Notes: generated from the letters alone by a model not told the origin. 32,000 bases of DNA from Fibrobacter succinogenes subsp. succinogenes S85 (GCF_000146505.1 NC_017448.1:2400001-2432000), one strand, 5' to 3'. Positions 2,537 through 27,631 are shown, counted from the stretch's first letter. Numbers and translations are program-made.

Positions 2537-2648
2537 TTCTTTGAATACTTTTGAAAATTGCTTAAATTTGCTTAAAATCGCCATTTTTGTTTTTGTGAAA
2601 ATTTGGTTCAGTCTTGCGCGTATCTGTACGATTAAGTAAATTTATAGC
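2537..2648 (+). promoter_or_regulatory. Upstream control region of cassette 1 (diverged copy of the conserved cassette leader)
   Basis: AAAATCGCCATTTTT at 2574-2588 resembles the A5-YGCC-A-T5 box of the other cassettes. TAAATTTA at 2637-2644 ends 4 nt before the ATG. There is no Shine-Dalgarno. Confidence 0.3.
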
Positions 2649-3512
2649 ATGATGAAATCGGTTACTGAATACAAAAACTATCGCGAGTATATTCTCGACT
2701 ACTACAAGGAACGCAAGCGTTGTTCTGCGTTTACGTGGCGAGAATTTGCGAAGGTGGCTGGATTTGCGTCGGGTTCGTACCTGAAACTTGTATGTGATGG
2801 CAAGACGCGTCTTCGCGAAGAAGGAGCGAAAAAGACTGCACTTGCAATGGGCTTACTTGGCTATGAATTGGATTACTTCGTTTTGCTGGTACGTTATGAG
2901 GGAGCAAAGACGGAACAGGAAAAGAAGAAGTGCTTTGAGGAAATGCAGGCGCTTGGTGAAGCGAATCGCGTGAAAATTCTCGGCAGCGAGATGTACACTT
3001 ACTACGAGACTTGGAAACATTCTGTGGTCCGCGAATTGGCTGTGGCTATGCCGGGCGCAAAGCCGAACGAAATTGCCAAAGTGTGCAAGCCTGCGATTTC
3101 TGCTGCGGATGTCAGTGATAGCTTGCGCTTTTTGCTCAAGGCTGGGCTTTTGACTCGCGATATCAAAGGGAATTATCACCAGACGAGTACTTCGCTTTCG
3201 ACGGGAAATTTGAATGTGGTGGCCGTGGCGGTGCATTCGCTGTTGCGCCAGATGGGCGAGTTTGCGCTTGATGCTTTGGATAAATTGCCTATTTCGGAAC
3301 GCCACTTTAGTGGCATCACGATGGGCGTGACGGCAGAAAGCTATGCAAAAATTGTGGATGAAATTGCTGCGTTCCGCAAGCGCATAGTGTCGATTGTTTC
3401 TGCCGACAAAAAGATTGAAAAAGTTTGCCGCTTGAATATGCAACTTTTCCCGCTGACGGAAAAGATTGAATATGGCGATATGAATGTGTTATCAAAAAAT
3501 AGAGGGGAGTGA
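2649..3512 (+). CDS. TIGR02147-type protein (Fibrobacter 'second' paralogous family; putative HTH DNA-binding protein), cassette 1
   Basis: 287-aa soluble ORF. The N-terminus (YKNYREYILDYYKERKRCSAFTWREFAKVAGFASGSYLKLVCDGK) is paralogous to ORFs 6142-6996, 14721-15575 and 20347-21219. The stop codon overlaps the next gene (GTGA at 3509-3512). Confidence 0.8.
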   Translation: MMKSVTEYKNYREYILDYYKERKRCSAFTWREFAKVAGFASGSYLKLVCDGKTRLREEGAKKTALAMGLLGYELDYFVLLVRYEGAKTEQEKKKCFEEMQALGEANRVKILGSEMYTYYETWKHSVVRELAVAMPGAKPNEIAKVCKPAISAADVSDSLRFLLKAGLLTRDIKGNYHQTSTSLSTGNLNVVAVAVHSLLRQMGEFALDALDKLPISERHFSGITMGVTAESYAKIVDEIAAFRKRIVSIVSADKKIEKVCRLNMQLFPLTEKIEYGDMNVLSKNRGE

Positions 3513-5905
3513 CTAGAATTATGCTCACTAAAACAATGACAAAATGGAATCTTTTGGCGGCTCTTGTATTTGGGACGTCTTTTTGGGCTTGTTCTGGTGA
3601 TAAGACGGCCGGTACGGACGAACAGAGCGAAGGCCTTTACGCCATCAAGAACTTGGATATTGCAGGCATTTCCCAAAAGGGCCCGTTCGTGAAGGGCTCC
3701 GCGGTGACGGTGCAGGGAATCAACTGCAAGACAATGGAATTCACGGATAAAGTTTTTGAGGGTGAAGTCAAAAATAACATGGGTGAATTTGTTGTTGAAA
3801 AGGTGAACTTGTCTACGACTTGTGCTGTTGTTGAAGTGACAGGCGAATACCGTAGCGAAATGACGGGGAAAAAAGTCTCGGATAAAATGACGCTCCGTGC
3901 GTTAACGAATCTTAAGGATCGTACGCATGTGAATGTCAACTTGCTTACGAACTTGGAATACGAGCGCGTGATGTACTATGTGACTGAAAAGGGCAAGACT
4001 TTCGACGAGGCTAAGGAATTGGCTGAAAGGGAAGTGCTTGCCGCATTCGGGATGGCTGGTGAATCGGCCGAATTTGAAGATTTGGATATTTTTGGAACAA
4101 GCGATGCGGATGCGACGCTCCTTGCTATAAGCGTGTTGATGCAAGGCGATGCCGATGTGAAAACGCTTGCTAAACGTCTGGATAAATTCAATGATTCCTT
4201 TGCAGAAAGCGGCAAGTGGAACGATGATGATACGAAAAAAGCGATTACCGACTGGATTGCGAATGCCGTGGCTAAAGCCGTGATGGATTCCATTCGTAAG
4301 AATATGGAAAATTGGGGATTCGCAAATGAAGTTCCCGATTTTGAAAAGGCCATTGAAGAAATCAATGTGGCACAGGAAATCCCCGAAGGGTGGAGCTGGG
4401 ATGTGCCCAAGGAAGCTCGCCTGAATCCGAATATCAAATATGATTCGATAATCGACTCGCGCGACAAGAAAGTTTACAAGGTCGTGAAAATTGAAGTGCC
4501 AGACTCGAATTATTCGCAGGTGTGGATGGCTGAAAACCTGAACTATGCCGATAGCGTCAAGACTCCGAGCTTGAAGGGCGGCAACTGGTGCTACAATAAT
4601 GAAGAAAAAAATTGCAAGGTGGGCGGTCGTTATTACAGCTGGGCGGCGGCAATTGACTCTGTTGCCTTGGCGAATGATTCGAAGGAACCGTTGGTTTGCG
4701 GCTATGGTAAAAAGTGCGGACTTGATCGCGCTGTGCAGGGAATTTGTCCTGATGGCTGGCATTTGCCGTCAATCTATGAATGGGGGTTGTTGAGCGTGGC
4801 GTTAGGATCTGGCGGCGTAGCTGGCGAGCCTCTCAAGGCCTTGACCGGGTGGGACTACGCCGGAACGCCTGACAATAACGGTACGGATCTTTACGGCTTT
4901 GCCGCACTCCCGACCGGAAGAAAAATTTCTGCAACTAGTTGGCAAAAGGTGGGCTCGGATGTTTATTACTGGAGCGCCACCGAATACAGTGCCGATCAAG
5001 GCCGGTATTTAAATATAAACAACATTTATACCAATTCTTATACGTATCAGAATAGCAAGTCTTATGGACAAAGTGTCCGTTGCGTCAAAGGGGATCCTTC
5101 GACTGCGCCGGTAAGGCCTTCTTCAAGTTCTGTAGATACCAATGGATGGAGCTGGGATGTGCCCAAGGAAGCTCGCCTGAATCCGAAAATCAAATATGAC
5201 TCGATGGTCGACCCGCGTGACAAGCAAGTGTATAAGGTTGTGAAAATTGACGTGTCAGACACGAATTATTCGCAGGTGTGGATGGCAGAAAACTTGAACT
5301 ATGCCGATAGCGTCAAGACTCCGAGCTTGAAGGGCCGCAACTGGTGCTACAACAATGATGAAAAGAATTGCAATGTGGGCGGTCGTTATTACAGCTGGGC
5401 GGCGGCAATTGACTCTGTTGCCTTGGCGAACGATCCGAAGGAACCGTTGGATTGCGGTTATGGCAAGACGTGCGGACTCAATCATAGTGTTCAGGGAATT
5501 TGCCCGGATGGTTGGCATTTGCCGACACTCCGTGAATGGAGTTTGTTGTGTGAGGCTATAGGGGATTACAGTACGTGTGGAAAGCCTCTCAAGGCTTTGA
5601 GCGGGTGGGACTATGCCGGAACGCCTAACAATAACGGTACTGATAAATATGGCTTTGCATCACTTCCGACCGGAAGAAGGCTTTCTGCAACTAGTTGGGA
5701 AAAGGTGGGTTCGGATGTTTATTACTGGAGCGCCACCGAATACAGTGCCGATGATGGTCGATATTTCAATATAAACAACATTTATACTCAAACTTATACG
5801 TATCAGAATAGCAAGTCTTATGGACAAAGTGTCCGCTGCGTTAAAGGGGATCCTTCGACTGCACCGGTAAGACCTTCTTCAAGTTCTAGCAAAAGCGATG
5901 AGTAA
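3509..5905 (+). CDS. Lipoprotein with the shared N-terminal module and two FISUMP (Fib_succ_major) domains
   Basis: Signal peptide with lipobox (FGTSFWAC|SGD). The motif WMAENLNY...GRYY.WAAA...CPDGWHLP..EW..L...YGF..LP.G...SVRCVKGD occurs twice. The ORF opens at GTG 3509, but ATG 3521 with GGGGAG 11 nt upstream is the more likely start. Confidence 0.85.
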   Translation: MTRIMLTKTMTKWNLLAALVFGTSFWACSGDKTAGTDEQSEGLYAIKNLDIAGISQKGPFVKGSAVTVQGINCKTMEFTDKVFEGEVKNNMGEFVVEKVNLSTTCAVVEVTGEYRSEMTGKKVSDKMTLRALTNLKDRTHVNVNLLTNLEYERVMYYVTEKGKTFDEAKELAEREVLAAFGMAGESAEFEDLDIFGTSDADATLLAISVLMQGDADVKTLAKRLDKFNDSFAESGKWNDDDTKKAITDWIANAVAKAVMDSIRKNMENWGFANEVPDFEKAIEEINVAQEIPEGWSWDVPKEARLNPNIKYDSIIDSRDKKVYKVVKIEVPDSNYSQVWMAENLNYADSVKTPSLKGGNWCYNNEEKNCKVGGRYYSWAAAIDSVALANDSKEPLVCGYGKKCGLDRAVQGICPDGWHLPSIYEWGLLSVALGSGGVAGEPLKALTGWDYAGTPDNNGTDLYGFAALPTGRKISATSWQKVGSDVYYWSATEYSADQGRYLNINNIYTNSYTYQNSKSYGQSVRCVKGDPSTAPVRPSSSSVDTNGWSWDVPKEARLNPKIKYDSMVDPRDKQVYKVVKIDVSDTNYSQVWMAENLNYADSVKTPSLKGRNWCYNNDEKNCNVGGRYYSWAAAIDSVALANDPKEPLDCGYGKTCGLNHSVQGICPDGWHLPTLREWSLLCEAIGDYSTCGKPLKALSGWDYAGTPNNNGTDKYGFASLPTGRRLSATSWEKVGSDVYYWSATEYSADDGRYFNINNIYTQTYTYQNSKSYGQSVRCVKGDPSTAPVRPSSSSSKSDE
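4391..5887 (+). repeat. Intragenic tandem duplication (two 741-nt units, 756-nt period, in frame)
   Basis: Unit 1 (4391-5131) and unit 2 (5147-5887) align without indels. They share exact runs of 41 nt (from 4391 and 5147) and 56 nt (4619-4674 and 5375-5430). Confidence 0.9.
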
Positions 5906-5931
5906 ATAAAACTTTTAAGTAAAGAGGAATG

Positions 5932-5963
5932 CCCCGTGGCCAATATGCCGCGGGGATTTTTTT
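5932..5963 (+). terminator. Rho-independent terminator ending cassette 1
   Basis: Stem CCCCGTGGC (5932-5940) pairs with GCCGCGGGG (5947-5955) across a 6-nt loop. A 7-T run (5957-5963) follows. Confidence 0.75.
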
Positions 5964-5984
5964 GGATTCTAGTGACTTTGATTT

Positions 5985-6011
5985 GTCATTCCCGCGAAGG
6001 CGGGAATCTCC
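5985..6011. repeat. REP-like hairpin element GTCATTCCCGC-GAAG-GCGGGAATCTCC (intergenic copy)
   Basis: Perfect 8-bp stem ATTCCCGC/GCGGGAAT with a GAAG loop. The same arms and flanks recur at 16310-16337 and 17075-17102 inside a CDS. Confidence 0.7.
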
Positions 6012-6141
6012 ATGTTCCAGGAATATGTATGTCATGTTCTAAAATGCTAAAAATTCTAAAATTTATGCAAAAATGGTAAAATCTGTGCAAAAATGCCATT
6101 TTTATGTTCTAGATTTAATGCAATTGAGTATATTTGTACTT
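6012..6141 (+). promoter_or_regulatory. Conserved upstream control region of cassette 2
   Basis: The region contains the near-palindrome ATGTTCCAGGAATAT (6012-6026), TGGTAAAAT (6074-6082), the perfect 7+1+7 palindrome AAAAATG-C-CATTTTT (6089-6103) and TATATTTG (6129-6136) ending 5 nt before ATG 6142. It aligns without gaps to 14591-14720. Confidence 0.5.
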
Positions 6142-6996
6142 ATGAAGGATATCGTTAAATATACGGATTACCGCAAGTACATTCAAGATTACTACGACGA
6201 ACGTAAACGCACTTCGGCGTTTTCTTGGCATATGTTTGCACAAAAGGCGGGTTTCTCGTCGGATGTTTATTTGAAGTATGTTTGCGAAGGAAAGAAAAAC
6301 CTGAGTGTTGGTTCTGCGGGTTCTGTTGCAAGTGCCATGGGCCTTGTCGGCTTCGAACAGACTTATTTCGTTTTGATGGTCTCGTACGCTCATGCAAAGG
6401 ATGACAAGACAAAACGTGCCGCGTTCGAGGAACGTTGTGCGTTAGCGCTTGCCCACAAGATGCGTGTTCTCGGTGATGAAGAATTCAATTACTTTAAATC
6501 GTGGAAAAATTCTGTGATTCGAGAATTGGCTCCGCACATGCCTGGTGCAAAGCCTCTCGAAATGGCGCGAGCTTGCAAACAAAAGATTTCTGCAACGGAA
6601 GTTTCCGAGACGCTTGATTTTTTGGTGAAGGCAAAGCTTTTAAAGAAGGACAGAAACGGAAACTACCAGCAAACGGATAAGGCCATCAGGATGGCGCCTG
6701 TAGAGGCGGTACCTTTGGCTGCTCGCGATTTGCAGCGCCAAATGGGAGAGTTCGCGATTCAGTCGCTGGATTTGCCTCTTTCTGAGCGAATGATGTCGGG
6801 CTATACGCTTGGCCTTACGCGTCGTGCTTACGAACGGATAAAAAAGGAAGTGGATGAGTTTTATCGGCGCATTGTCGCGATTGCGACAGAAGAAGATGAA
6901 ACGGAGCGTGTTTATCGCTTGAATGTGCAACTGTTCCCGATGAGCGAATGGTTGAATAAAAGTGGAACAGTTTTGAATAAGGATGAGAGAAAATGA
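6142..6996 (+). CDS. TIGR02147-type putative HTH protein, cassette 2
   Basis: The ORF is open from 6073, but the paralogues all begin MK(D/E/A)IV(K/E)YTDYRK, so ATG 6142 is taken as the start. The stop overlaps the next start (ATGA at 6993-6996). Confidence 0.8.
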   Translation: MKDIVKYTDYRKYIQDYYDERKRTSAFSWHMFAQKAGFSSDVYLKYVCEGKKNLSVGSAGSVASAMGLVGFEQTYFVLMVSYAHAKDDKTKRAAFEERCALALAHKMRVLGDEEFNYFKSWKNSVIRELAPHMPGAKPLEMARACKQKISATEVSETLDFLVKAKLLKKDRNGNYQQTDKAIRMAPVEAVPLAARDLQRQMGEFAIQSLDLPLSERMMSGYTLGLTRRAYERIKKEVDEFYRRIVAIATEEDETERVYRLNVQLFPMSEWLNKSGTVLNKDERK

Positions 6997-9206
6997 GATA
7001 TAACTTGTACAAATTATTTTCTACCATTGCTGTGGTATCTTTGACCTTTGTTGCGTGCTCTTCGGATAATGATGTCGCAGGCGGCGCTTCGGGCGATGCT
7101 GGCGTTGTTGCTGTCACGGATAGAGAAGTGGCGGGTGTTACGCAAAAGGGTCCGTTCTTGGTGGGTTCATCTGTCGCAATTCAGGAATTGAATGGATTGA
7201 CTTTGGTACAGACCGGTAGAAGCTTTAGATCGAGTATTAAAAATGATTTAGGTGATTTCTCTATCAAGGGTGTAAATCTCTCTTCTCAATATGCTTTGCT
7301 TGAAGTCAATGGGTATTATCGCAATGAAGTTTCTGGCGAAAAATCAAAAGGGATGATAGCTCTGAATGCATTGACCGACTTGAAAGACCGTAGCCATGTG
7401 AACGTGAACTTGATGACTCATTTGACGACGGACCGCATTTTGGCTTTAGTTCAAAAAGAAGGAATGTCTTTTGCTGAAGCGAAAAAACAGGCCGAAAGAG
7501 AAGTGATGACTTCGTTTGGTGTCTTGGACGATTTGGGTAATGGTGAAGACCTCAATTTGTTTGCTGGCGATGGTGGCGCAATGTTGCTTGCCATGAGTGT
7601 GCTGATGCAGGGGGATGGCTCAGAAGCAGATCTTTCTGAACGAGTTTCGCATGTGGCAACGGCGATTGTAAATAATGGCATTTGGAATGGTGACGAAAAA
7701 ACGGAAATAGCAGATTGGGCGTTTCAGATTGATGCTGTGATAAAGAAATCTAAAAAGGGTGGGAGTATGCTTCAGCTAATTCGCGAAAATGTAGAGTCGT
7801 GGCAAGTCGTGGATTCAGTTCCGCCTTTTGAAAAATACGTTAATAAATTTTGGGCTCATGAATATGGCCTTGGTGCATGTGATGAAAAAAATCTTTATGA
7901 AGTAAAAAGTAATACAAATGAATTGAGTCAATATTATAGAAATGAATTTGTATGTAACCCTGACGGCCGTTGGAGTTTGGTTCGCATGAGAGAAATTCAA
8001 AGTTCTCTTTTTGAAGAGATTCAAGATAAGGCTGATGGCGAACATTATAAAGTTATGAAAATAGGGAATAAACAATGGATGGCCGAAAATTTAAGACGAA
8101 AAAGTAATGCTTTTAATAAAGGGAATGATATATCGTATAGTACGTGCTATGACGAAAAACAATCTAATTGCGATTCTTATGGATTACTGTATGAATGGAA
8201 TGCTGCTGCTCAATTATGCCCTGAAGGGTATAAATTGCCTAGTATTTCTGATGTTAAAGCTCTTTTGCATTTTTATGGAGGTGAGGGAAAGGAGTCTGCC
8301 CAAAAACTTCGTGCTGCTGATGGGTTCGGCGCTTTATATGGAGGTCTGTATGAAGAAAAGCTCAAAGATTACATTGGTGGATTTTATTATACTGGAATTT
8401 TCGAATATTTGGGTCTTCATGAAGTGGCTAATTATTGGACTGAATCGCCGGCTTTTTTGCTCCGAATAGATTCTCTTGGTGCAAGGCTTGACAGTGTAGA
8501 TAGAAGACTTTTAGGAACGCCAGTGAGAGCGTCTGTTCGCTGTGTCAAGGATGAACAGACCGAAGCAGAAACGGGTTTTATAAAAGAACGTGTTTGTGAC
8601 CCAGTTGATAAAAATTATTGTAACGATTTCCCGATCTATTATACTGTTATAAATGGAAAAAAATGGATGACAGAGAATAGAACGAATGAATTGCAATTGG
8701 TAGAAACGAATTACGAAGTGTGTTATGACGATGAGCCTTGGTGCTCTGAAGATAATAGGTATGATGCGAAATGTAGCATGATTTCTAGCAAGGAATGTTT
8801 ATATTCATGGGAAGATGCTATGAAAGTGTGCCCTGAAGGATGGCGTTTGCCCACTCGTTCGGAATGGGAGGCCTTAATGGGCGACTCTCCTTATGTGAAT
8901 TCTCAGGGAGAAAATGGAATATATACGATGTATTTTACAGATAATTTTTCATTACATGATATTAGTCATTGGTCTGATGAATATTACGTGTCGTATGCGA
9001 ATTCTTTGGGACTTAGTATTAAACCTGCAGGATATTATGAAATGGGTTATGAAAAAGTTGAATTCGGTGCTGCTTTTTGGACTAGTTCGGATAGCTCGTC
9101 GACGGATGCTTATGCTTTTATGCTTGTAGATGCTCTTGCAGGAACCTATATCATGAAAGTTGCGGATAAACGAAATTATTACTCTGTTCGTTGCATTGAA
9201 AAATAG
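6993..9206 (+). CDS. Lipoprotein with the shared N-terminal module and two strongly diverged FISUMP-like domains
   Basis: Lipobox LTFVAC|SSD. N-module motifs are present (GVTQKGPF.VGSSV, VNVNLMTHL, AKKQAEREV). The C-terminal half retains WMAENL, CPEG(Y/W)(K/R)LP and SVRC(V/I) landmarks but is AT-rich and divergent. Confidence 0.8.
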   Translation: MRYNLYKLFSTIAVVSLTFVACSSDNDVAGGASGDAGVVAVTDREVAGVTQKGPFLVGSSVAIQELNGLTLVQTGRSFRSSIKNDLGDFSIKGVNLSSQYALLEVNGYYRNEVSGEKSKGMIALNALTDLKDRSHVNVNLMTHLTTDRILALVQKEGMSFAEAKKQAEREVMTSFGVLDDLGNGEDLNLFAGDGGAMLLAMSVLMQGDGSEADLSERVSHVATAIVNNGIWNGDEKTEIADWAFQIDAVIKKSKKGGSMLQLIRENVESWQVVDSVPPFEKYVNKFWAHEYGLGACDEKNLYEVKSNTNELSQYYRNEFVCNPDGRWSLVRMREIQSSLFEEIQDKADGEHYKVMKIGNKQWMAENLRRKSNAFNKGNDISYSTCYDEKQSNCDSYGLLYEWNAAAQLCPEGYKLPSISDVKALLHFYGGEGKESAQKLRAADGFGALYGGLYEEKLKDYIGGFYYTGIFEYLGLHEVANYWTESPAFLLRIDSLGARLDSVDRRLLGTPVRASVRCVKDEQTEAETGFIKERVCDPVDKNYCNDFPIYYTVINGKKWMTENRTNELQLVETNYEVCYDDEPWCSEDNRYDAKCSMISSKECLYSWEDAMKVCPEGWRLPTRSEWEALMGDSPYVNSQGENGIYTMYFTDNFSLHDISHWSDEYYVSYANSLGLSIKPAGYYEMGYEKVEFGAAFWTSSDSSSTDAYAFMLVDALAGTYIMKVADKRNYYSVRCIEK

Positions 9207-9218
9207 GAGGATACTTAT

Positions 9219-11354
9219 ATGAAAAAACAAATATTTGCATTTGCTTTAGCTTTAGGTTGCTTTCTTTCAGGATGTACCTCGGAGAATGCTTTCGGTATTG
9301 AAAATTCTGATGAGAAAATCTCTTCTGAGAATATCGTGGGCTATTCACAGAAAGGGCCAATTTTGGCTGGCTCATCTGTGTTTATTCAGGAATTGGATAG
9401 CGTAAATTTTTTGCAGACTGGAAAAAGTTTTAGGGGCAAGGTAATAAGCGATAATGGAGAATTTGTTGTCGAAAATGTGAACTTGAATTCTCCGTATGTT
9501 TTGTTGGAAGTGAATGGCTATTTCCGTAATGAGATTACTGGAAAAAATTCTAATGGTGCCATATTCATGAATGCACTTGCAGATGTTAGCGAACAAAGTC
9601 ATGTAAATATCAATTTGTTGACGCATCTTGAGTATGAGCGAGTTCAGGTATTGTTGGAACAAAAGAAAATGTCCATTGCTGAGGCTAAACGTGTGGCGGA
9701 TCGAGAAATTCTAGCATCTTTTTTTGATGAAACTGATTACGGAAAAGTTGAACAATTGGATATTTTTGGCAATGGTAAAGGGGATGCCGCTCTTTTGGCG
9801 ATTAATGTACTGTTGCTCGGAGAAGGGAAAGAAGCTGATTTTATGGAACATTTTGCGAAACTTGGGAATGACCTTGCGCAAGATGGTGTGTGGAACGACT
9901 CCGCGCTTAGAACTCAAATAGCTGATAGGGCGTGCGAAATGGACCTTGATGGAAATCTTCCTGTTATTCGCAAAAATATTGAAAATTGGAAAATTGCAGA
10001 AAGGGTTGCGCCGTTTGAGCCTTATGTTACATCTTTTTGGAAAAAATCATATGGACTTGGTGAGTGCCGTGAATCTAATATGGGAGAAACCAAGAAAAAT
10101 TCTAATACCTCCAGTATTTATTACGGGTTAAATTTTACCTGTGATAAATCGGAACGTTGGGTTGCAAATTTAGATGTGGTTCGTGCTGGGTGCGATTCTT
10201 GTGGGTTTATGATTGATCCACGAGATGGACACAAGTATCGTACAATAAAAATTGCGGGTGCAAATTGGATGGCCGAGAATTTGGCGTATAACGGCTATGG
10301 TGAAGGTTCGTTTTACCATGATGACGAGTCGTATGGACTTTGGTATGAAGTGGGTGTGGCTATGCTTGGAAATCAAGTCGTGCCTGATTCTAGTGGCAGT
10401 AAATGGACTTATTACATAATGTCCGAAATCACTCCAGTTGTGTATTATTTGCATACTGGTTGTCCTGAGGGGTGGAAATTGCCTACTCGTGAAGATTATT
10501 ATCAATTGATGAATGCGACTGCATCGAATAACTATGAATTGCTGCTGTCTCCAAAAGGGTGGAATTTAAAACTTGGTTATGATTTTGATCCGGTTGCATA
10601 TTTCACTTCGACATTTGATCCTGAGACTCCTTATGGTCAACGACCTACATATTATTATGCTAGAATGTATGCCTCTGGAAGTGAAATCGCTCCTGAAATA
10701 GTTATGGGACGTGGCATGGCCGGCGGCGGATTTATTCGCTGTGTGGAAGAAGGCTTAACGCAAGAAAAATCTGTGTTGCCGGCAAGCGAAGTGGTTGCAG
10801 ATTCTTTTGTGGATGAGCGCGATGGAAAAACGTATAAAACGATCAAGTTTGGCAATCAGGAATGGATGGCTCAAAATGTGGAGTATCCGGTAGGAGATTC
10901 TACTGTTGGGGATGGGGAACGACGTTGTGAGGCGATCTGGGAAGCGACTCCAAGCATGTTTTATCCAGATCCCTGCGATATTGGATGGCGATATGATTGG
11001 TATGAAGTTCAGGAAGCGTGTCCAGAAGGATGGAAAATTCCTAGTGTAGATGATGCGAAAAAAATGCTAGAGTATGTTGGTGGCGCTTCTGGAAATGCTG
11101 CGTTGTTTACGTTAGGGCTTGAGGGTAGTCAAGATATATATGGTTTTTCCGCTTTACCGACGCAATATGAGCAAGTGACTTGCGCGAAGATGATTAATGG
11201 TTGTACCTATAAGCCTGTTGGAGCGAAATTCTGGATATCAGATTCTACTGGACGTGTGCGGAATGTATTGGCTTTTGACAAGTTAGATGTTGGGATTAAA
11301 CCCGCTGTTTCAACTGATTATTTGCCTGTGCGCTGTGTGAAAGACGCTGAATAA
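9219..11354 (+). CDS. Lipoprotein with the shared N-terminal module and two diverged FISUMP-like domains
   Basis: AGGAGG Shine-Dalgarno and lipobox FLSGC|TSE. N-module motifs are present (YSQKGPILAGSSV, HVNINLLTHLEYERV). The C-terminal half retains WMA(E/Q)N, CPEGWK(L/I)P, IRCVEE and VRCVKD. Confidence 0.8.
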   Translation: MKKQIFAFALALGCFLSGCTSENAFGIENSDEKISSENIVGYSQKGPILAGSSVFIQELDSVNFLQTGKSFRGKVISDNGEFVVENVNLNSPYVLLEVNGYFRNEITGKNSNGAIFMNALADVSEQSHVNINLLTHLEYERVQVLLEQKKMSIAEAKRVADREILASFFDETDYGKVEQLDIFGNGKGDAALLAINVLLLGEGKEADFMEHFAKLGNDLAQDGVWNDSALRTQIADRACEMDLDGNLPVIRKNIENWKIAERVAPFEPYVTSFWKKSYGLGECRESNMGETKKNSNTSSIYYGLNFTCDKSERWVANLDVVRAGCDSCGFMIDPRDGHKYRTIKIAGANWMAENLAYNGYGEGSFYHDDESYGLWYEVGVAMLGNQVVPDSSGSKWTYYIMSEITPVVYYLHTGCPEGWKLPTREDYYQLMNATASNNYELLLSPKGWNLKLGYDFDPVAYFTSTFDPETPYGQRPTYYYARMYASGSEIAPEIVMGRGMAGGGFIRCVEEGLTQEKSVLPASEVVADSFVDERDGKTYKTIKFGNQEWMAQNVEYPVGDSTVGDGERRCEAIWEATPSMFYPDPCDIGWRYDWYEVQEACPEGWKIPSVDDAKKMLEYVGGASGNAALFTLGLEGSQDIYGFSALPTQYEQVTCAKMINGCTYKPVGAKFWISDSTGRVRNVLAFDKLDVGIKPAVSTDYLPVRCVKDAE

Positions 11355-11366
11355 GGAAGAGAGAAA

Positions 11367-17680: not shown

Positions 17681-17705
17681 TGTTTGAAAAAAAAGGAGAA
17701 GGAAA

Positions 17706-20147: not shown

Positions 20148-20182
20148 ATAGTGGTTAGTAAATAGTGGTTGGTGGTCAGTGG

Positions 20183-20216
20183 AAAAAGTCCTCGCTAGTG
20201 TGGCGGGGCTTTTTTG
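20183..20216 (+). terminator. Putative rho-independent terminator ending cassette 3
   Basis: Imperfect hairpin AAAAGTCCTCGC-tagtgtg-GCGGGGCTTTTTT with a T-run at 20210-20215. Confidence 0.55.
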
Positions 20217-20346
20217 TGTTCTTAGGATACATTTTGTGTTCTGAAATTTTGCGTAATTCGTATAAAAATGGCTGAAAACGTAAAAATTAAGCGAAAAACG
20301 GCAATTTTTGTATTCCATTATTATTGAATAAACTATATTTGTAATC
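20216..20346 (+). promoter_or_regulatory. Conserved upstream control region of cassette 4
   Basis: The region contains a degenerate palindrome GTGTTCTTAGGATAC (20216-20230), AAAAACGGCAATTTTT (20294-20309) and TATATTTG (20334-20341) ending 5 nt before ATG 20347. There is no Shine-Dalgarno. Confidence 0.45.
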
Positions 20347-21219
20347 ATGAAGGCGATTGTTGAATATACAGATTATCGCAAGTTCATTCAGGATTATTAT
20401 GATGAACGCAAACGCGACTCCGCTTTAACTTGGCGCGAGTTTGCTCAGAAAGCCGGTTTTGCATCGGCCATTTTTCTGAAGTATGTTTGTGAAGGCAAAA
20501 AGAATCTGAGTATCAGCGCTGCGGGTTCCGTTGCAGATGCCATGGGGCTTGTCGGTTTTGAAAGAACGTACTTTGTTCTGATGGTGATGTACGCCCATGC
20601 CAAAGGGGACGAGGCCAAAATGGCGGCGTTCGAAAAATGCTGTGCCTTGGCGAGGGCGCATAAGGTTCGTGTGCTCGGTAGCGAAGAATTTGATTATTAC
20701 AGGTCTTGGAAAAATCCGTTGATTCGTGAACTCGCTCCGCACATGCCGGGAGCAATGCCTTCTGAAATGGCGCGTGCTTGCAGGCCGAAAATCTCTACAG
20801 CCGAAGTTGCTGAAACGCTTGATTTTTTGGAAGATGCAAATCTCCTAAAAAAAGACCAGGAAGGAAATTATGTGCAGACGGACAAGTCCATATCGATGGG
20901 CTCCGTGGAAGCGGTTCCGCTTGCGGCGCGTGATTTGCAACGCCAGATGGGCGAGCTTGCCGTAAGGGCTATAAATTTCCCGCTTGCGGAGCGCTCCATG
21001 TCGGGTGTTGTCTTGGGGCTTACGCAGGAGTCCTATGAGCGTGTCAAGAAGGAACTTTTGGAATGCCGTCGCCGCATTATCGCCATTGCTACGGAAAGTA
21101 ACAAGACGCAGCGTGTGTACCGCTTGAACTTGCAGTTGTTCCCGTTGAGCGAAGATCTGGATGTTGCTAACGATGCTTTAAAAAATAAGGAGGAGAGGAA
21201 TGATAAGAAACGAGTCTAG
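20347..21219 (+). CDS. TIGR02147-type putative HTH protein, cassette 4
   Basis: 290-aa ORF starting MKAIVEYTDYRKFIQDYYDERKR. It overlaps the next gene by 20 nt. Confidence 0.8.
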   Translation: MKAIVEYTDYRKFIQDYYDERKRDSALTWREFAQKAGFASAIFLKYVCEGKKNLSISAAGSVADAMGLVGFERTYFVLMVMYAHAKGDEAKMAAFEKCCALARAHKVRVLGSEEFDYYRSWKNPLIRELAPHMPGAMPSEMARACRPKISTAEVAETLDFLEDANLLKKDQEGNYVQTDKSISMGSVEAVPLAARDLQRQMGELAVRAINFPLAERSMSGVVLGLTQESYERVKKELLECRRRIIAIATESNKTQRVYRLNLQLFPLSEDLDVANDALKNKEERNDKKRV

Positions 21220-23425
21220 ATTTTTTGGGGGAGTTTTTGCTTTCGCATTGGCGTTTGCCTTTGTGTCCATGTTTTCGGCATGCTCTGAAAAGGTTGCGGG
21301 TGGATCTTCTGATGATTCGGGTATCTACGCTGTCAAGGATTTGGATGTGGCAGGCGTTTCGCAGAAGGGGCCGTTTGTCAAGAGTTCTGCGGTGACGGTG
21401 CAGGGTATTGATTGCAAAACGGTGGAACTAACTCATGAAATTTTTGAAGGTTCGGTCAAGAGCGACAAAGGCGACTTTGGCGTTGATGATGTGAACCTTT
21501 CGGTGTCTTGCGCTTTGTTCGAAGTAACCGGTCACTACTTCAATGAAGTGACTGGTAAAAAGTCGGCGGGCGAGGTAACGCTCCATGCGCTCTCGGACTT
21601 GAGCGACCGCAAGCATGTGAATATCAACATGCTCACGGAACTTGAATACAGGCGTGTGATGCATCTCGTGTCAGAAGAGCATATGGATTTTGCGGATGCA
21701 AAGAAACAGGCCGAGAAGGAAGTCCTTGCTGCTTTCGGTATCAAGGGTGACTTTGATAATTTTGAAGACTTGACCATTTTTGAAGGTGGTGATGGAAATG
21801 CGGCGCTCCTTGCTGTAAGCGTGATGATGCAGGCGGAAACGGATGAAGCGGGACTTGCGAAGCGTATAGATAAGTTTGCAGATTCGTTTGCGGAAACCGG
21901 CAAGTGGAAGGATGACGAAACGAAAGCGGCAATTGAAAGTTGGCAGATTGATGCTGCGGCCAATGGTACTCTTGATTCAATTCGCAAGAATGTTGAAAGT
22001 TTGGGCTATGCCGATGTGGTTCCCGCTTTTGAAAAGTTCGTCGAAGCTTTCCAATACTCTTCCAGTGTTACACCGCGGTCAAGTAGTTCGTCAAAGGTCC
22101 CTGAGCCTGCCGAAGAGTCCAGCAGCAGTTCCGCAAAGGCGGATGCCGGCAGTGAATACGATGCTTCAGCAAATACGCTGAAGGATTTGCGCGATGGTCA
22201 AATTTACAGAACCGTTAAAATCGCTGGTCAGGTATGGATGGCAGAGAACCTGAACTACGAAGTGGAAAATAGTTCCTGTTTCAAAAATTCCGCAGATAGC
22301 TGTGCCAAGTATGGTCGCCTATACACCTTGCCTATTCAGGGAGTTTGCCCGAGCGGTTGGCACTTGCCTAGTGGTGTTGAATTAAATGCGCTGGTCACGG
22401 AAGCGGGTGGTCCAATTGTTGCAGGTTTGCATCTCAAGTCACGGACGGATTGGTACAGAACGGTAAGAGGCACGGATGCCTTGGGGTTTGCCGCACTCCC
22501 TGCAGGCAGGTGGAGCGAAGATAACGGTTTCGTTGGTGGTGTTGCTGCTTTTTGGAGTTCTAGTGAACGCGATAGTATTCATGTGTACGCTATGCACTTG
22601 TCCGATTATAGGGCGGATATTACCTTCAGTGATAAGGACAACGTTGCGTATTCGGTTCGTTGTCTAAAGAATAATGATTCAGTAGAAAGTAGTTCTAGCG
22701 GCTCTGAGGCTTCTAGCAGCAGCGTTAAGATTGCGTTGGCCTGTAAAATGAAAAATACGGATTATTGCAAATATGAAACCTTGATTGATGAGCGCGATGG
22801 CCAAACATATAAGACCATAAAAATCGGCACCCAGACGTGGATGGCTGAAAACTTGAATTATGCGTCCTTGCAACCTACGGATAGATTGGATTCAACCAGT
22901 TTCTGTTACGAGAATGAACCCTTTAATTGTGAAAAGGATGGTCGCCTGTATTTATGGAGTGCGGTCATGGATAGCGCTGCGACATGGAGTGATAATGGTA
23001 AAGGCTGCGGTTATGGTGTTGTCTGTTCTCCGACTTTCCCTGTACGTGGCGTTTGCCCGGCTGGCTGGCATGTGCCAAATCGTGATGAAGTGATGGAATT
23101 GTTAGATGCTGTTGGTGGAGTAGATGTTGCTGGAGATATGCTCATATCTGAATATTCAGGTTGTATAGATGAAGTGGATCTTTATGGCTTTTCGTTCCGC
23201 CCTACAGGTCGCAAGAGAAGTGAAGGGTACTATGACGATGATGGTGAGTATGGGTATATGTGGACTACAACGGATGACTATTAGAATTCGGACGAGTTTT
23301 TTCTCAAAAATAATGAACCGTTTGAACTCGTAGCGGCATTTTCTCTGTCGAAAGCAGGCGGTAATCTTGGTATGCACGGATATTACAAAAATACGGGCTA
23401 CCCTGTCCGCTGCATCAAGGACTAG
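21200..23425 (+). pseudogene. Lipoprotein (shared N-module plus two FISUMP domains) interrupted by an in-frame TAG at 23282-23284
   Basis: AGGAGG Shine-Dalgarno and lipobox MFSAC|SEK. The ORF stops at 23284, but the same frame continues for 46 sense codons to a second TAG at 23423-23425. That tail ends with the family signature GYPVRCIKD. Confidence 0.7.
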
Positions 23426-23449: not shown

Positions 23450-25039
23450 ATGTTCACGGAAAAGATTTCAATTTTTAAATGGTGTAATTTCTTCGGGTTG
23501 ATTGCGGTGAGCGCCATGTTCTTGGCATGCTCCGATGACAAGATCGCGGGCGGTTCTTCGGATGATGCAGGCATTTACGCTGTCAAGGATTTGGACGTGG
23601 CGGGCGTCTCGCAGAAGGGACCGTTCGTTACGGGTTCGCATGTGACTGTGCAGGGCATCGATTGCAAAACGATGAAATTGACCGGTGAAAGTTTTGAAGG
23701 TACGGTCAAGAGTGACAAGGGCGATTACGATATCGATGGAATTTCGCTTTCGTCTTCGTGCGCGGTTTTTGAAGTGACCGGGCTCTATGTTGATGAATTT
23801 ACGGGCGTGCAGACTACGGAGCCGGTAACGCTTCGCTCGCTTGTGAACCTCAAGGATCGAAAGAGCGTGAATGTCAATGTGCTCACGCAACTGGAGTATG
23901 GCCGTGTCGTGAAGCTCGTGTCCGAACAGAATACTCCTTTTGCAGATGCTAAAAAGCAGGCTGAAAAAGAAGTGCTTGGGGCGTTTGAAATTGATAGTGT
24001 GTTTACGCCGTTCGAAGATCTGAACATTGTTGAAGACGGTGAAGATAACGCCGCTCTCCTTGCTGTAAGCGTGCTTGTACTTGTTTCGGGTGATTCTAGT
24101 AAAAATGTGAATGTCGAGGAACGTTTGGAAAAGATTGGAACTTCTATTGCCGAAACCGGAATATGGGCTGATGAAGAAATTAAATCAGAAATGGCGGAAT
24201 GGGCTTTTGCTTCATGGACGAATGGACAAATGAAAAGTCTAGGCGATAATCTTGAAAAAATGGGCTATCCCAGTAATATTTATGATATCTCGTATTTTAC
24301 AGACGAGTTTGTAGATAGTGTCTGGGTGGACAAGAATCGCGATCCGTCTGTAATTTATTCCGGGATGTATATCAACTGGAGTATTCCTAAAGAAGCTTAT
24401 TTTAATCCGGATATTAAGTACGATTCCGTTGTTGATAGCCGTGATGGGCAAATTTATAAGACCGTGAAAATCGGTAGCCAAACCTGGATGGCTGAAAACT
24501 TGAATTATGCCGACAGCGTTCAGACTCCGAGTCTTTTGGGGCGCAGCTGGTGCTTTGCCAATAAGCCCGAAAATTGCGCAATGGCTGGCCGCCTTTATAC
24601 CTGGACTGCCGCTGTGGATTCTGTAAATCTTGCGACGGATAAGGATAATCCGCAGGACTGCGGCTACGAAAAGCTTTGCAACCTTTCTAAGATCCGAGGC
24701 ATTTGTCCTGAAGGATTCCATTTGCCAGATACAACGGAATGGCGTACATTGATTTCATTTGCGGGTGGCGATCACATTGCCGGCGGAAAGCTTGAATCAA
24801 GGCTTGGAATGTATAGAGATCCAGGTACGGATGATTATGGTTTTTCTGCATTCCCTGCAGGTAACAAGTATCGTGATAGAGAATTTTTCGAAGATAGCCG
24901 CGATGTCTATTTTTGGCTGTTGACCGAATATTCTGATGATGACCACTTGGCTTATTGGTCGGTTTTCTTTTACGAAACATTTAATTTCTCGGGTGGCTTT
25001 AAGGATATGGGAGTCCCTGTCCGCTGCGTTATGGATTAG
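23450..25039 (+). CDS. Lipoprotein with the shared N-terminal module and one FISUMP domain
   Basis: Lipobox MFLAC|SDD. The single C-terminal domain (WSIPKEAYFNPDIKYDS...WMAENLNYADSVQTPSL...CPEGFHLP...VRCVMD) is related to the WSWDVP subfamily. Confidence 0.85.
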   Translation: MFTEKISIFKWCNFFGLIAVSAMFLACSDDKIAGGSSDDAGIYAVKDLDVAGVSQKGPFVTGSHVTVQGIDCKTMKLTGESFEGTVKSDKGDYDIDGISLSSSCAVFEVTGLYVDEFTGVQTTEPVTLRSLVNLKDRKSVNVNVLTQLEYGRVVKLVSEQNTPFADAKKQAEKEVLGAFEIDSVFTPFEDLNIVEDGEDNAALLAVSVLVLVSGDSSKNVNVEERLEKIGTSIAETGIWADEEIKSEMAEWAFASWTNGQMKSLGDNLEKMGYPSNIYDISYFTDEFVDSVWVDKNRDPSVIYSGMYINWSIPKEAYFNPDIKYDSVVDSRDGQIYKTVKIGSQTWMAENLNYADSVQTPSLLGRSWCFANKPENCAMAGRLYTWTAAVDSVNLATDKDNPQDCGYEKLCNLSKIRGICPEGFHLPDTTEWRTLISFAGGDHIAGGKLESRLGMYRDPGTDDYGFSAFPAGNKYRDREFFEDSRDVYFWLLTEYSDDDHLAYWSVFFYETFNFSGGFKDMGVPVRCVMD

Positions 25040-25051
25040 GAGGAATTCATC

Positions 25052-27631
25052 ATGAAAAAAGTAATACTTCTCTTTTTGCTGACTCTTGCAAATATTGCAG
25101 GGGCGTACTCTATTTCGTATAAATATTCCGGTGCAACAGGCGCTTCTTGCGAACCTGCGAGTGCTTCTGGAGGAACAGAAATCAGGTGCTCTGCTCCAGA
25201 TGGATTTGTTTGGTCTGCCGTATCCTTGGATGGGGGCAATTCGTCGATTAAATATTGTATTTCTGGTGCCTGCTTGGCCGAAATTAACGACAATGTCGTT
25301 GTGGATGTCAAGTTCTCTCAAGAGACCGCAGTACACAAGATTGATTGGGTTGCTGTCTGGAGCCAGGTATATACTTTAAGCAATGGCTATATCAAGGTGA
25401 CGGACCTGGATGGTAAATACTTTTTGTTCGCCGCTTCGGAGGGGGATTCCGTCAAGGTTACGCCTGTACCTTCTCTGAGCTATCATTTTCAAGCGCTTCG
25501 TGAAAAGAATAGGGTCGGTGTTAAGATAGATACAGATTATTTTGGAAAGGATAATTTAAGTTTTTTTGCAATGCCGGATGCTGATATTCGTCTAGAAGCG
25601 GAATTTGCACACAATTTGTATAGAATCCTCTATGATATGAATGGACTTGATACGCTTGAATTGTGGGGTACGGACTGTTCGACTCTCCTAAGCTGCACAA
25701 TTTCTAAAGCCATATATGAACGTGAAGGGTATATATTCCGTGGATGGACTTATGAAAAGGACCAACAAGATACGTTTCTTCTTCCTGGTACAAAACTCCC
25801 GCCGGCACCTTATGAGAATGATGCTCGCGTACAGCTTTATGCAAAATGGTTCGAAGTTAAAAAGCCTCAAAAAGTAAATGGCTGCTACCAGATAAATGAC
25901 GAGCACGAACTTTTTGGTTATGCGTATATTGTCAATGGAAAGGACCATTTTGAACAGGAAACTGATGCCTGCGGTGAACTTGTTGCAGATATAGTCGTAA
26001 ATGAAAGTGTGCTGGATTCAATTGCGATGTTGCGCAAGGATCCGGAACGTTTGCTGACGTGGACTCCGATGGGCTCGGCTGAAAAACCGTTTGTCGGAAG
26101 ATTTAATGGTAAGGGACATTCCATAAAGGGGCTTTATGTGCCGGGTTCCGGAAGCTCTGTTGGATTTTTTGCGGTTGCTCAGGGAGATGTTTCTATTGAT
26201 AGTTTGGGAATTATCGACTCTTATTTTGAGGGGTATGAGAGAATTGGTGGAATTGTCGGAAGTTTAGCGAAAAAGTCAAAGCTTTCCGTTACATATTCTT
26301 ATGTGGATTTGACCTTGTCTGGTCGTAATATGGGTGGATTGGTTGGTTATGTCTTTGATTCTTCGTCGGTTTATATAAAGGGGGCTCACCGTTCAGGGAA
26401 GAATATTTCTGAATCTGTTGTTGGAGGATTGGTGGGCAGGGGAAGGTCTGCTTCTGTTTTTACGATATTGAATTCTTATAATGAAAGTTCTTTTGAATGT
26501 GGTATCCATAATTGCACGATTGGTGGGCTTCTTGGGTGTATTGGGGCTGAGTATGAAGATCTTATATATGAAAATATGGGTGATTCCCTAATTATAGATA
26601 GCTGCTATAATACGGGGGCTATGGATGGCAAAGGGAATGATTCATATTATGGTATTGGTCGAAGTATGGGTGGGCTTGTTGGCAGTTTTAATGCTCACTA
26701 TGCTTCCATATCGAATTCGTATAATAAGGGCTCGATGACGACAGAAGATGGGGGGCGCGATACGGATTATATGGGTGGCTTGGTCGCTAGTTTTTCAGGA
26801 ATTTTGGAAATAACACGTTGCCATAATAGCGGAACTCTTAAAGGGGATGGTGTTGCGGGATTTGTTGCAGGTGTTGGTGAAGGTTCTCATATAAATATTA
26901 GCACCTCCTATAATGAAGGTTATTTGTGGGGAAGAGGTATTGCTAGTGGAATGGTTATTTCGGAAGTGGGCTTTTATGGAGTTAATCCTGAGGGGACGAT
27001 TGTCAATTCGTACAATGTAGGCGAAGTCGAAGTGTACGAGTCTTATCGCAAAGCGACATTGTTTGGCTCAGGGTTGTTTGATGGAAATATAAATCTCAAG
27101 ATTATTAATTCGTACAATGTAACTCCGTTTAATTACCGGAAGTGTCAGATATCCTATGATACCTTAGTCAATGTTTTTTATTATAGAAGCTTGGCGTGTG
27201 AGGGGTTTGAAGATCAAAGTTCTCCAGATGATTTTATTGATGGCTCGATTGCGTGGAAACTGTACAATTATAACGAGAACGGGGTTGACGGCCATGTGTG
27301 GGGACAGAAGGTTGGTGTAGATCTTTATCCCGTCTTGAATGGTGCAGGAGTTGAAGGTTATAATCCGGATGCTCCTCGTTCAAGTTCCTCTTCGGGTAGG
27401 GTGTCGCTTACGGCTGAGGTTGTCGATTTGAATGTGTCGGTGAATGTTGCGGATCGGAAAATCCAGATTGAAGGCGCACGCGCCGGTTCGATGTTTGCAT
27501 TGTTTGACATGCAAGGACGAATGCTTTTGGCTGGTTCTATCGAAAAAGGTTCTCGAACGATTGGTGTGCCGATGGCTGGCTCCTACCTCCTCCGTGTCGG
27601 GAGTAAAATGCAGAAAGTACACGTGAAATAA
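25052..27631 (+). CDS. Secreted repeat protein with a Listeria-Bacteroides-repeat-like segment, a GLUG-motif repeat region and a C-terminal sorting-type beta domain
   Basis: AGGAGG Shine-Dalgarno 12 nt after the previous stop. Signal peptide MKKVILLFLLTLANIAGAYS. The EREGYIFRGW...LYAKW segment resembles the Listeria-Bacteroides repeat. There are at least 6 GG(I/L)(V/L)(G/A) motifs (GGIVGS, GGLVGY, GGLVGR, GGLLGC, GGLVGS, GGLVAS). The tail ...FALFDMQGRMLL...GSYLLRVGSKMQKVHVK resembles Por/T9SS-type C-terminal domains. Confidence 0.65.
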   Translation: MKKVILLFLLTLANIAGAYSISYKYSGATGASCEPASASGGTEIRCSAPDGFVWSAVSLDGGNSSIKYCISGACLAEINDNVVVDVKFSQETAVHKIDWVAVWSQVYTLSNGYIKVTDLDGKYFLFAASEGDSVKVTPVPSLSYHFQALREKNRVGVKIDTDYFGKDNLSFFAMPDADIRLEAEFAHNLYRILYDMNGLDTLELWGTDCSTLLSCTISKAIYEREGYIFRGWTYEKDQQDTFLLPGTKLPPAPYENDARVQLYAKWFEVKKPQKVNGCYQINDEHELFGYAYIVNGKDHFEQETDACGELVADIVVNESVLDSIAMLRKDPERLLTWTPMGSAEKPFVGRFNGKGHSIKGLYVPGSGSSVGFFAVAQGDVSIDSLGIIDSYFEGYERIGGIVGSLAKKSKLSVTYSYVDLTLSGRNMGGLVGYVFDSSSVYIKGAHRSGKNISESVVGGLVGRGRSASVFTILNSYNESSFECGIHNCTIGGLLGCIGAEYEDLIYENMGDSLIIDSCYNTGAMDGKGNDSYYGIGRSMGGLVGSFNAHYASISNSYNKGSMTTEDGGRDTDYMGGLVASFSGILEITRCHNSGTLKGDGVAGFVAGVGEGSHINISTSYNEGYLWGRGIASGMVISEVGFYGVNPEGTIVNSYNVGEVEVYESYRKATLFGSGLFDGNINLKIINSYNVTPFNYRKCQISYDTLVNVFYYRSLACEGFEDQSSPDDFIDGSIAWKLYNYNENGVDGHVWGQKVGVDLYPVLNGAGVEGYNPDAPRSSSSSGRVSLTAEVVDLNVSVNVADRKIQIEGARAGSMFALFDMQGRMLLAGSIEKGSRTIGVPMAGSYLLRVGSKMQKVHVK

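Follow-up and report, generated by a model that had tools for sequence, protein, structure and literature searches.

A 32,000-nt stretch of DNA from Fibrobacter succinogenes subsp. succinogenes S85 (NC_017448.1:2400001-2432000; hereafter the window) carries an array of four cassettes, each of which opens with a gene of the TIGR02147/DUF4423 family, encoding a putative regulator, and continues with genes for lipoproteins that bear FISUMP domains. In the six-frame list of open reading frames (ORFs), each of the four TIGR02147/DUF4423 genes stands at the head of a same-strand run of FISUMP lipoprotein genes (coordinates in Table 1). Their products, designated R1-R4, matched the NCBIfam profile TIGR02147 at full length (293-358 bits against a cut-off of 50 bits; profile positions 1-271 of 272), and all four matched Pfam DUF4423 (90-104 bits; cut-off 30 bits). 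The eight downstream proteins contain 2, 2, 2, 2, 2, 2, 2 and 1 FISUMP domains (PF09603/TIGR02145), 15 in all, which scored 78-198 bits in Pfam for the eight proteins and 156-340 bits in NCBIfam for the five also tested (cut-offs of 41.65 and 33.9 bits for TIGR02145 and PF09603, respectively). The CP.GW.LP and VRC motifs are present in each of the 15 domains, and a lipobox cysteine is present in 8/8 of the proteins. An earlier note on this DNA had described four regulator-led units with eight lipoproteins and 15 lectin-like domains; the ORF layout and the domain counts agree with that description, and the hidden Markov models (HMMs) of both families match the ORFs above cut-off.

The cassettes are compact, with gaps of −20 to +8 nt between a regulator gene and its first lipoprotein gene and of 12-25 nt between successive lipoprotein genes. 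The three strongest terminator-like hairpins within 2400-21400 are exactly those in the inter-cassette gaps, and they include the two that the earlier note had placed at the ends of cassettes 1 and 3. Two details of the layout differ from a clean tandem array of four units: a minus-strand ATPase_2 gene splits the array between cassettes 2 and 3, and F4a is broken by an in-frame TAG. This TAG (23282-23284) lies 47 codons short of the natural end, at a conserved Trp of the second FISUMP domain, and the orthologues in L003, L023 and L025 read TGG at this position; the TAG stems from a sequencing error or else from a recent nonsense mutation. The final gene of cassette 4 had also been listed among the lipoproteins, an assignment we withdraw, as its product has neither a lipobox nor a FISUMP match.

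A scan at one genome per species yielded 62 loci, all from Fibrobacter and from about 42 metagenome-assembled genomes (MAGs; a count of distinct isolate names), which were annotated with HMMs built from the window regulators, the FISUMP domains and the N-terminal ~300 residues of the lipoproteins. After 106 of the 112 TIGR02147 genes having downstream room, a lipoprotein gene with this N-terminal module came directly next on the same strand, with a modal spacing of −4 (a 4-nt ATGA overlap). Conversely, 151 of 182 module-bearing genes sit in regulator-headed runs, and most of the others are cut by locus ends. Complete cassettes hold one lipoprotein gene in 57 cases, two in 29, three in 2 and four in 1. 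The adjacency of regulator and lipoprotein genes across Fibrobacter genomes is thus far from chance, and, together with the inter-cassette hairpins, it upholds the proposed grammar of one regulator, then n lipoproteins, then a terminator as strongly non-random. The identity of the conserved partner had to be revised: because 41 of the 151 Fibrobacter partner proteins carry the N-terminal module without a FISUMP domain, it is this ~300-aa module, and not the FISUMP lipoprotein as such, that is the constant partner in Fibrobacter, and FISUMP is exchangeable cargo.

The pairing is not confined to Fibrobacter. P0197, a remote member of the family with 28% identity to R3, drew relatives named by their sources as Elusimicrobiota, Deltaproteobacteria, Bdellovibrio and Fibrobacteres. 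Five distant contexts were compared: two metagenome contigs, a 'Deltaproteobacteria' MAG, Bdellovibrio and an Elusimicrobiota-related contig. In every one, the gene that follows the DUF4423 gene overlaps it and has no match in Pfam; in the four for which DNA was available, this following gene starts with a lipobox. A metagenome scan with Bdellovibrio-like members added 80 more loci, with 74 unique regulators having room downstream. For 45 of these 74, the partner has a signal peptide, a Cys and then, within a few residues, the sequence G-[TS]-[ED]-[TV]-G-N-P; approximately 17 more (a count from the listing) carry variants of this tag, such as STETGNP, VTESGNP or GGTTDTGNS. A 4-nt overlap with the partner gene was likewise found for 45 of the 74. 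The consensus outside Fibrobacter is C-x-GTETGNP, just past the lipidated Cys, and a six-frame reading of 485 kb found the tag 46 times, in every case immediately after a TIGR02147 gene. Since all synonymous codons are in use for GTETGNP, the tag is selected at the peptide level, and a role as an in-gene DNA operator was ruled out for the same reason.

Tag aside, the distant partner lipoproteins belong to many unrelated families; they showed no homology to the Fibrobacter N-terminal module or to FISUMP, and no other recurring neighbour gene was found in the metagenomic loci. Because outside Fibrobacter the partner is any C-x-GTETGNP lipoprotein, the TIGR02147-lipoprotein pairing is much older and wider than the term 'Fibrobacter paralogous families' implies. 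The assignment of the window genes to these two families stands, both HMM families matching, whereas the restriction to Fibrobacter does not, since Bdellovibrio, Elusimicrobiota and metagenomes from soil and sediment share the pairing. The Bdellovibrio MAG contigs L064/L065 carry three TIGR02147-lipoprotein dyads in a 12-kb stretch, with both strands in use. Paralogous genes of 447-451 aa, whose products appear by eye to be secreted, lie in between the dyads, and the module may have undergone a separate, more modest expansion here.

The four upstream regions of the window can be aligned with each other, and a set of 110 non-identical Fibrobacter cassettes revealed a common arrangement of motifs whose spacing from the regulator ATG is fixed: TATATTTGT at −13 to −5, TTTTGTATTCC near −40, GGTAAAATTTG near −66, a TGTRTTCY half-site near −110, and a palindrome TTCYnRGAA, in its full form GTATTCC-n-GGAATAC, near −130. 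Regulators of the R1-like subfamily are preceded by another class of promoter, TTGCA-N17-TATTTT-N6-ATG. The distance from the end of the −10 element to the ATG is 4-7 nt in either class, so that the regulator mRNA is probably leaderless or nearly leaderless. Within the window, TTGTRTTCY occurs at 8 sites against 1.0 expected, a number reached in 0 of 100 shuffles, and 6 of the 8 sites lie upstream of R3 and R4, in keeping with the shared control region noticed earlier. Between the upstream operator-like sites and the promoter-proximal half-site lie A-tracts phased at ~10 bp (6044-6096, a 20-nt unit repeated 2.6 times according to Tandem Repeats Finder, with equivalents in the other cassettes), which suggest intrinsically bent DNA and possible looping.

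A related signal was found upstream of the distant regulators, where GAATACA (= TGTATTC) occurs in 22 of 68 against 11 of 400 (11-fold enriched) and AGAATACA in 14 of 68 against 3 of 400 (21-fold enriched). These k-mers combine into inverted repeats of the form (T/C)GTAT(T/A)C-N4-5-GAATAC(A/G), located ~100 nt ahead of the conserved YxDYR codons in lineages rich in AT as well as in very GC-rich ones. When up to two mismatches were allowed, GTATTC-N3-6-GAATAC was present in 45% of upstream regions versus 5-6% of random windows from the same loci, and this contrast holds in both the distant and the Fibrobacter sets; the spacer is N4-5 in the former and N3 in the latter. Because the regulator is most conserved in its recognition-helix region and a shared operator-like site lies upstream, the simplest reading is that TIGR02147 proteins would bind TGTATTC-N3-5-GAATACA and autoregulate. 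Cassettes 2-4 have the same candidate operator, and R2-R4 have nearly the same recognition helix, for which reason cross-regulation among these cassettes would be at least as likely as the individual switching that the earlier note had proposed. We also considered the regulator's own E-Y-T codons (window 14736-14744), which read GAA-TAY-A, with GAA in 107 of 110 Fibrobacter regulators versus 65% of Glu codons elsewhere in these genes; with TAC they form the half-site GAATACA, inverted and ~50 nt downstream of the −40 half-site. As an in-gene half-site they are unconvincing, since TAC and TAT are equally in use and the GAA bias may be a codon preference near the start.

The regulator family comprises 10,452 clusters at 50% identity (E ≤ 1e-3). 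Pfam HTH_3 (PF01381) matched 10 of 62 diverse family members (best E 6e-5), and member P0451 reached 26.0 bits at residues 37-76, above the gathering threshold of 23 bits. The family profile gave weak matches to C.BclI (E 0.097) and HigA at residues 23-80, and weak winged-helix matches to 2x4h and 3b73 (E 1.6-1.9) at residues 130-181. A structural model from the four-paralogue alignment, with a predicted local distance difference test (pLDDT) score of 51, has a five-helix N-terminal part and a helix-helix-helix-strand-strand arrangement at 124-177. The helix-turn-helix (HTH) recognition-helix region was the sole stretch conserved enough to serve as a metagenome search pattern. By sequence comparison the N-terminus is probably an Xre-type HTH, which agrees with the HTH-like reading in the earlier note, and the profile matches and the model suggest a winged helix inside the DUF4423 part.

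On the lipoprotein side, an AlphaFold model of the N-terminal part of F4b, made from a 51-sequence alignment, had a pLDDT of 82 and a predicted template modelling score of 0.80, and consists of a disordered tether (1-16 after the Cys), a beta-sandwich (19-107) and a helical bundle (118-269). A Foldseek search of this model against the PDB returned nothing at E<1e-3, the best matches being generic small beta-sandwiches such as PA1324; no model for the module exists among the Pfam and NCBIfam collections searched, and sequence searches for PDB relatives of the regulator, the lipoprotein and the FISUMP profile gave none that was significant. Lcl_C matched 5 of the 8 FISUMP proteins, one of them above cut-off (35.5 versus 34.9 bits). 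FISUMP has been grouped with the DUF1566 C-type-lectin-like targets of diversity-generating retroelements (DGRs) on surface lipoproteins (PMC5758913). By analogy, the FISUMP domains are probable C-type-lectin-like, ligand-binding domains, and the weak Lcl_C/DUF1566 similarity and this grouping would be compatible with glycan binding. FISUMP domains number 17-119 copies per Fibrobacteres genome (PMC4704652), and in one proteomic study a FISUMP protein was found in the cell envelope on cellulose substrates and not on glucose (PMC4619616).

The tether following the Cys has the pattern CSDD-x-VAGG-x-S/T-x-D-A/S-G in Fibrobacter, and the Fibrobacter tether CSDDKVAGGTTEDAG can be aligned by eye with intermediate forms such as CGRSPVAGGTTDTGNS. 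Lipoprotein export signals (LES) of Bacteroidetes include SDDDD and SDDFE (PMC5080379); after the lipobox Cys and a polar residue, an LES has acidic residues in positions +2 to +6, and surface exposure also belongs to its definition. Approximately 6 of the 8 window lipoproteins have an LES-like start (CSDDK twice, CSNDD, CSSDND, CLDDK and CSGDK). The CSDD start thus resembles the Bacteroidetes LES in its sequence, and surface exposure would follow by analogy.

The reading that best fits these results, to which we give a probability of roughly 0.6, is that of autoregulated operons in which tagged lipoproteins are encoded together with a protein that combines an Xre-HTH with a winged helix, and which Fibrobacter has expanded into a hypervariable island. 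The TIGR02147 protein would be cytoplasmic, with an N-terminal Xre-type HTH and a probable central winged helix inside DUF4423, and would bind TGTATTC-N3-5-GAATACA and the half-sites upstream of its own gene. Binding would control transcription of that gene together with the translationally coupled lipoprotein genes, by activation or by repression, and the −10 box 5-8 nt ahead of the ATG would probably yield a leaderless regulator mRNA. The lipoproteins would carry the lipobox, the short conserved tag in a flexible tether past the Cys, and then a lineage-specific cargo, which in Fibrobacter would be the beta-sandwich and helical-bundle module followed by 0-3 FISUMP domains, probably on the cell surface. 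Fibrobacter would have multiplied the unit into tandem arrays whose cassettes and domains are quickly gained, lost and reshuffled, the outcome being a variable lipoprotein repertoire under one family of closely related regulators.

Several points weigh against this reading. A clear palindrome is found in no more than 45% of the upstream regions, and the operator footprint indicates that something conserved binds there, which does not identify the binder as the TIGR02147 protein. R1-R4 themselves score below the HTH_3 threshold, with no match at E<0.01, and the regulator model, on which the winged helix partly depends, is poor and was unusable for a fold search. The leaderless mRNA is deduced from motif spacing, and the surface exposure and ligand binding of the lipoproteins from analogy (PMC5758913, PMC5080379). 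The loci were gathered by similarity to the regulators and are not a whole-genome census. In the literature searched we found no mention of TIGR02147, PF14394, IPR011873 or the tag; the sole mention of DUF4423 is in a Bdellovibrio proteomics table, where Bd3700 is among the proteins upregulated during growth within prey. Finally, plain autoregulation leaves unexplained why the tag is so tightly tied to a cytoplasmic regulator.

This last point is where two alternatives begin. The tag might be a sorting or surface-export signal read by an LES-like envelope machinery, with TIGR02147 as an ordinary local regulator of an external cue such as the substrate, in which case the sole link between them would be that this class of exported lipoprotein is always under this regulator family. 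The position and acidic character of the tag do resemble an LES, the window lipoproteins begin CSDDK, CSNDD or CLDDK, and the operator footprint would suit a standard local regulator. However, neither the confinement of the tag to TIGR02147 partners nor the presence of a separate regulator copy in each cassette despite shared operators is explained in this way, and Bdellovibrio, which is not known to use an LES pathway, shares the dyad; we consider this account unlikely. Alternatively, the regulator could sense its partner, the C-terminal part of TIGR02147 recognising the tag before export or as a released peptide, which would make transcription of the operon depend on the amount of the lipoprotein or on its state of export and allow feedback-controlled, possibly one-at-a-time, expression. 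The exclusive placement of the tag beside TIGR02147 genes in the sampled DNA (46/46), its retention across phyla though the rest of the lipoprotein is unrelated, its location in a disordered tether, the translational coupling of the two genes and the ~100 C-terminal regulator residues without an assigned role are all consistent with this. Yet regulator and lipoprotein end in different compartments, one tag in all lineages would give no specificity between paralogous cassettes, Pfam searches found no tetratricopeptide repeat (TPR) or other known peptide-binding domain in the regulator, and, as short flanks were sampled, tagged lipoproteins could lie elsewhere in these genomes.

Partner sensing has precedents in secretion-coupled regulators and in the RRNPP regulators PrgX and TraA of Firmicutes, which are Xre-HTH proteins whose pheromones derive from the N-terminal region of lipoprotein precursors. 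TIGR02147 is similarly a probable Xre-HTH regulator tied to a short peptide in the N-terminal region of a lipoprotein. It differs in lacking TPRs, in that the peptide lies in the mature tether and not in the signal peptide, in its diderm hosts and in the use of one tag everywhere, and there is no sign that the tag peptide is released or imported. We regard partner sensing as distinctly unlikely. The same doubt attaches to its furthest extension, a speculative one, in which an undescribed multi-phylum module would couple a leaderless-mRNA regulator to the tether peptide of its own lipoprotein in an export-transcription feedback, and in the hypervariable Fibrobacter islands the shared operators and the many paralogous regulators would enforce a selective, possibly one-at-a-time, display of lectin-like adhesins. 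Least probable by far is that the array is a passive by-product of two-gene tandem duplication without functional coupling, or a selfish module of the defence or toxin-antitoxin type. The cassettes are clearly paralogous (60-90% DNA identity), the arrays differ between strains and the regulator profile has its weak match to HigA antitoxins, but the dyad persists, 4-nt overlap included, alongside unrelated cargo in phyla that are themselves unrelated, which largely refutes such an origin. In addition, PADLOC gave no credible match (chance-level scores of E 0.007 and 3e-4, for different proteins), the downstream genes encode exported lipoproteins and not toxins, and the flanks bear no sign of a phage or mobile element.

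Among known systems, the autoregulated operons proposed here are closest to the Xre/Cro/cI-type autoregulating repressors, including restriction-modification controller (C) proteins such as C.BclI, with which they share a probable N-terminal Xre-type HTH, the place of the regulator as the first gene of the operon that it would control, and inverted-repeat candidate operators upstream of its own gene. The lambda cI mRNA from PRM is leaderless, as the TIGR02147 mRNA probably is. Unlike these repressors, TIGR02147 proteins are ~285 aa long, with an extra DUF4423 part (a probable winged helix and a helical C-terminus), have tagged lipoproteins as cargo and occur as dozens of paralogues per genome, and the window proteins fall below the HTH_3 threshold. 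The capsular-polysaccharide loci (UpxY/UpxZ) and Sus-like polysaccharide-utilization loci of Bacteroides, which belongs with Fibrobacter to the Fibrobacteres-Chlorobi-Bacteroidetes superphylum, similarly comprise many paralogous surface loci, each with a regulator of one family, inviting cross-locus control, and Bacteroides surface lipoproteins have an acidic export signal past the Cys. In contrast to those loci, the cassettes have no NusG-like UpxY, invertible promoter, SusC/SusD, extracytoplasmic function (ECF) sigma factor or hybrid two-component system, and the regulator family is unrelated. Phase variation by an invertible promoter was rejected, because the promoters are not flanked by inverted repeats and none of the 110 cassettes has its promoter motif reversed. 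DGR targets of the DUF1566/FISUMP class, such as Legionella LdtA, are also surface lipoproteins with a variable ligand-binding C-terminal C-type-lectin-like domain (PMC5758913), whereas the diversity in the window arises as genes and domains are duplicated, lost and recombined. A DGR was rejected after every plus-strand ORF of at least 250 aa and the minus-strand ATPase ORF had each been assigned to another family: neither a reverse transcriptase nor a template repeat emerged, the only repeats being those of paralogous domains.

FISUMP is among the most expanded families of Fibrobacter and has long been suspected of a part in plant-fibre adhesion, with no assigned function or known regulation. 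A candidate dedicated regulator family for FISUMP lipoproteins, a probable operator (TGTATTC-N3-5-GAATACA) and a testable promoter architecture are now at hand. As the dyad and a new N-terminal lipoprotein tag are kept in many uncultured bacteria of soil and sediment as well as in Bdellovibrio and Elusimicrobiota, what was named a Fibrobacter paralogous family appears as a general, unstudied module of the diderm cell envelope.

The island itself is variable. Between the same flanks, the related genome L003 has two cassettes where the window has four (compared over window 2436-29671); the flank identity is 97.5% for the oxaloacetate decarboxylase genes, of which the beta gene borders the site, and 88-92% for the metallo-beta-lactamase-fold gene, and the SpoIIE/dCache/HAMP phosphatase gene (27665-29635) had no megablast match in L003. 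The FISUMP domains of F1a and F3b are 75-90% identical at the DNA level, as compared with ~65% for their N-terminal modules. Because L003 and the window differ in cassette number and the F1a and F3b FISUMP domains are closer than the modules, comparison of these sequences indicates that the island changes by cassette gain and loss and by domain exchange.

Table 1. Genes and candidate control elements of the four-cassette array (window coordinates)
Feature	Position	Strand	Remarks
Terminator-like hairpin	2469-2490	+	9 pairs, T-run; at end of preceding oxaloacetate-decarboxylase operon, immediately ahead of cassette 1
Cassette 1 upstream palindrome (TTCTATAGAA core)	2496-2512		candidate class-B operator variant
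Putative regulator R1	2649-3512	+	TIGR02147/DUF4423, class-B subfamily
Lipoprotein F1a	3509-5905	+	lipobox, N-terminal module, 2 FISUMP; GTGA overlap with R1
Terminator-like hairpin	5932-5955	+	end of cassette 1
Cassette 2 O1, operator-like inverted repeat	6011-6027		ATGTTCC-A-GGAATAT
Cassette 2 control region	6034-6111	+	half-sites 6034-6042 and 6103-6111; phased A-tracts; GGTAAAATCTG box
Cassette 2 TATATTTGT −10/−7-like box	6129-6137	+	ends 4 nt before R2 ATG
Putative regulator R2	6142-6996	+	TIGR02147/DUF4423
Lipoprotein F2a	6993-9206	+	N-terminal module, 2 FISUMP; ATGA overlap with R2
Lipoprotein F2b	9219-11354	+	N-terminal module, 2 divergent FISUMP
Lipoprotein F2c	11367-13364	+	N-terminal module, 2 FISUMP
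ATPase_2 (PF01637) gene	13393-14511	-	separates cassettes 2 and 3; outside any cassette
Cassette 3 candidate operator O1	14590-14606		TGTATTC-CTG-GAATACG
Cassette 3 candidate half-site O2	14611-14619	+	TTGTGTTCT
Cassette 3 candidate half-site O3	14681-14689	+	TTGTATTCC; overlaps −35 position
Cassette 3 TATATTTGT −10/−7-like box	14708-14716	+	4 nt before R3 ATG
Putative regulator R3	14721-15575	+	TIGR02147/DUF4423
Lipoprotein F3a	15584-17680	+	N-terminal module, 2 FISUMP
Lipoprotein F3b	17706-20147	+	N-terminal module, 2 FISUMP
Terminator-like hairpin	20190-20208	+	end of cassette 3
Cassette 4 candidate operator O1	20215-20231		TGTGTTC-TTA-GGATACA
Cassette 4 candidate half-sites	O2 20234-20242, O3 20308-20316	+	A-rich spacer between
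Cassette 4 TATATTTGT −10/−7-like box	20334-20342	+	4 nt before R4 ATG
Putative regulator R4	20347-21219	+	TIGR02147/DUF4423
Lipoprotein F4a	21200-23425	+	N-terminal module, 2 FISUMP; second domain cut by in-frame TAG
Lipoprotein F4b	23450-25039	+	N-terminal module, 1 FISUMP
Last gene of cassette 4	25052-27631	+	859 aa; non-FISUMP, without lipobox; signal peptide by eye

R1 opens with ATGATG, and its start may be the second ATG (2652), which both the regulator alignment (MKxIVEY) and the placement of the AT-rich box favour. Between the terminator of cassette 1 and the candidate operator of cassette 2 there is a further GC-rich hairpin, ATTCCCGC-GAAG-GCGGGAAT (5988-6007), which the other control regions lack. 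An Rfam search over the control regions returned no known RNA element, its sole match being a tRNA gene (29716-29789, minus strand, 65 bits) just past the gene for the SpoIIE-type phosphatase, at the distal border of the variable island.

The ATPase_2 gene lies in DNA of lower GC content (0.40) and is kept at the same spot in the related genomes L001, L003 and L036. Its promoter region contains a strong sigma-70-like TTGACA-17-TATATT (14577-14549, minus strand), which is overlapped by a 23-nt inverted repeat (14520-14542 / 14546-14568, 87% complementary). The protein encoded by the last gene of cassette 4 gave weak matches to the InlB-B-repeat/Listeria-Bacteroides-repeat models and to nothing else; its C-terminal ~80 aa resemble a type IX secretion system sorting domain by eye, without HMM support. 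Homologues of this protein (up to ~2,560 aa) are encoded by the terminal cassette gene in L004, L027, L031, L034, L035, L047 and L061.

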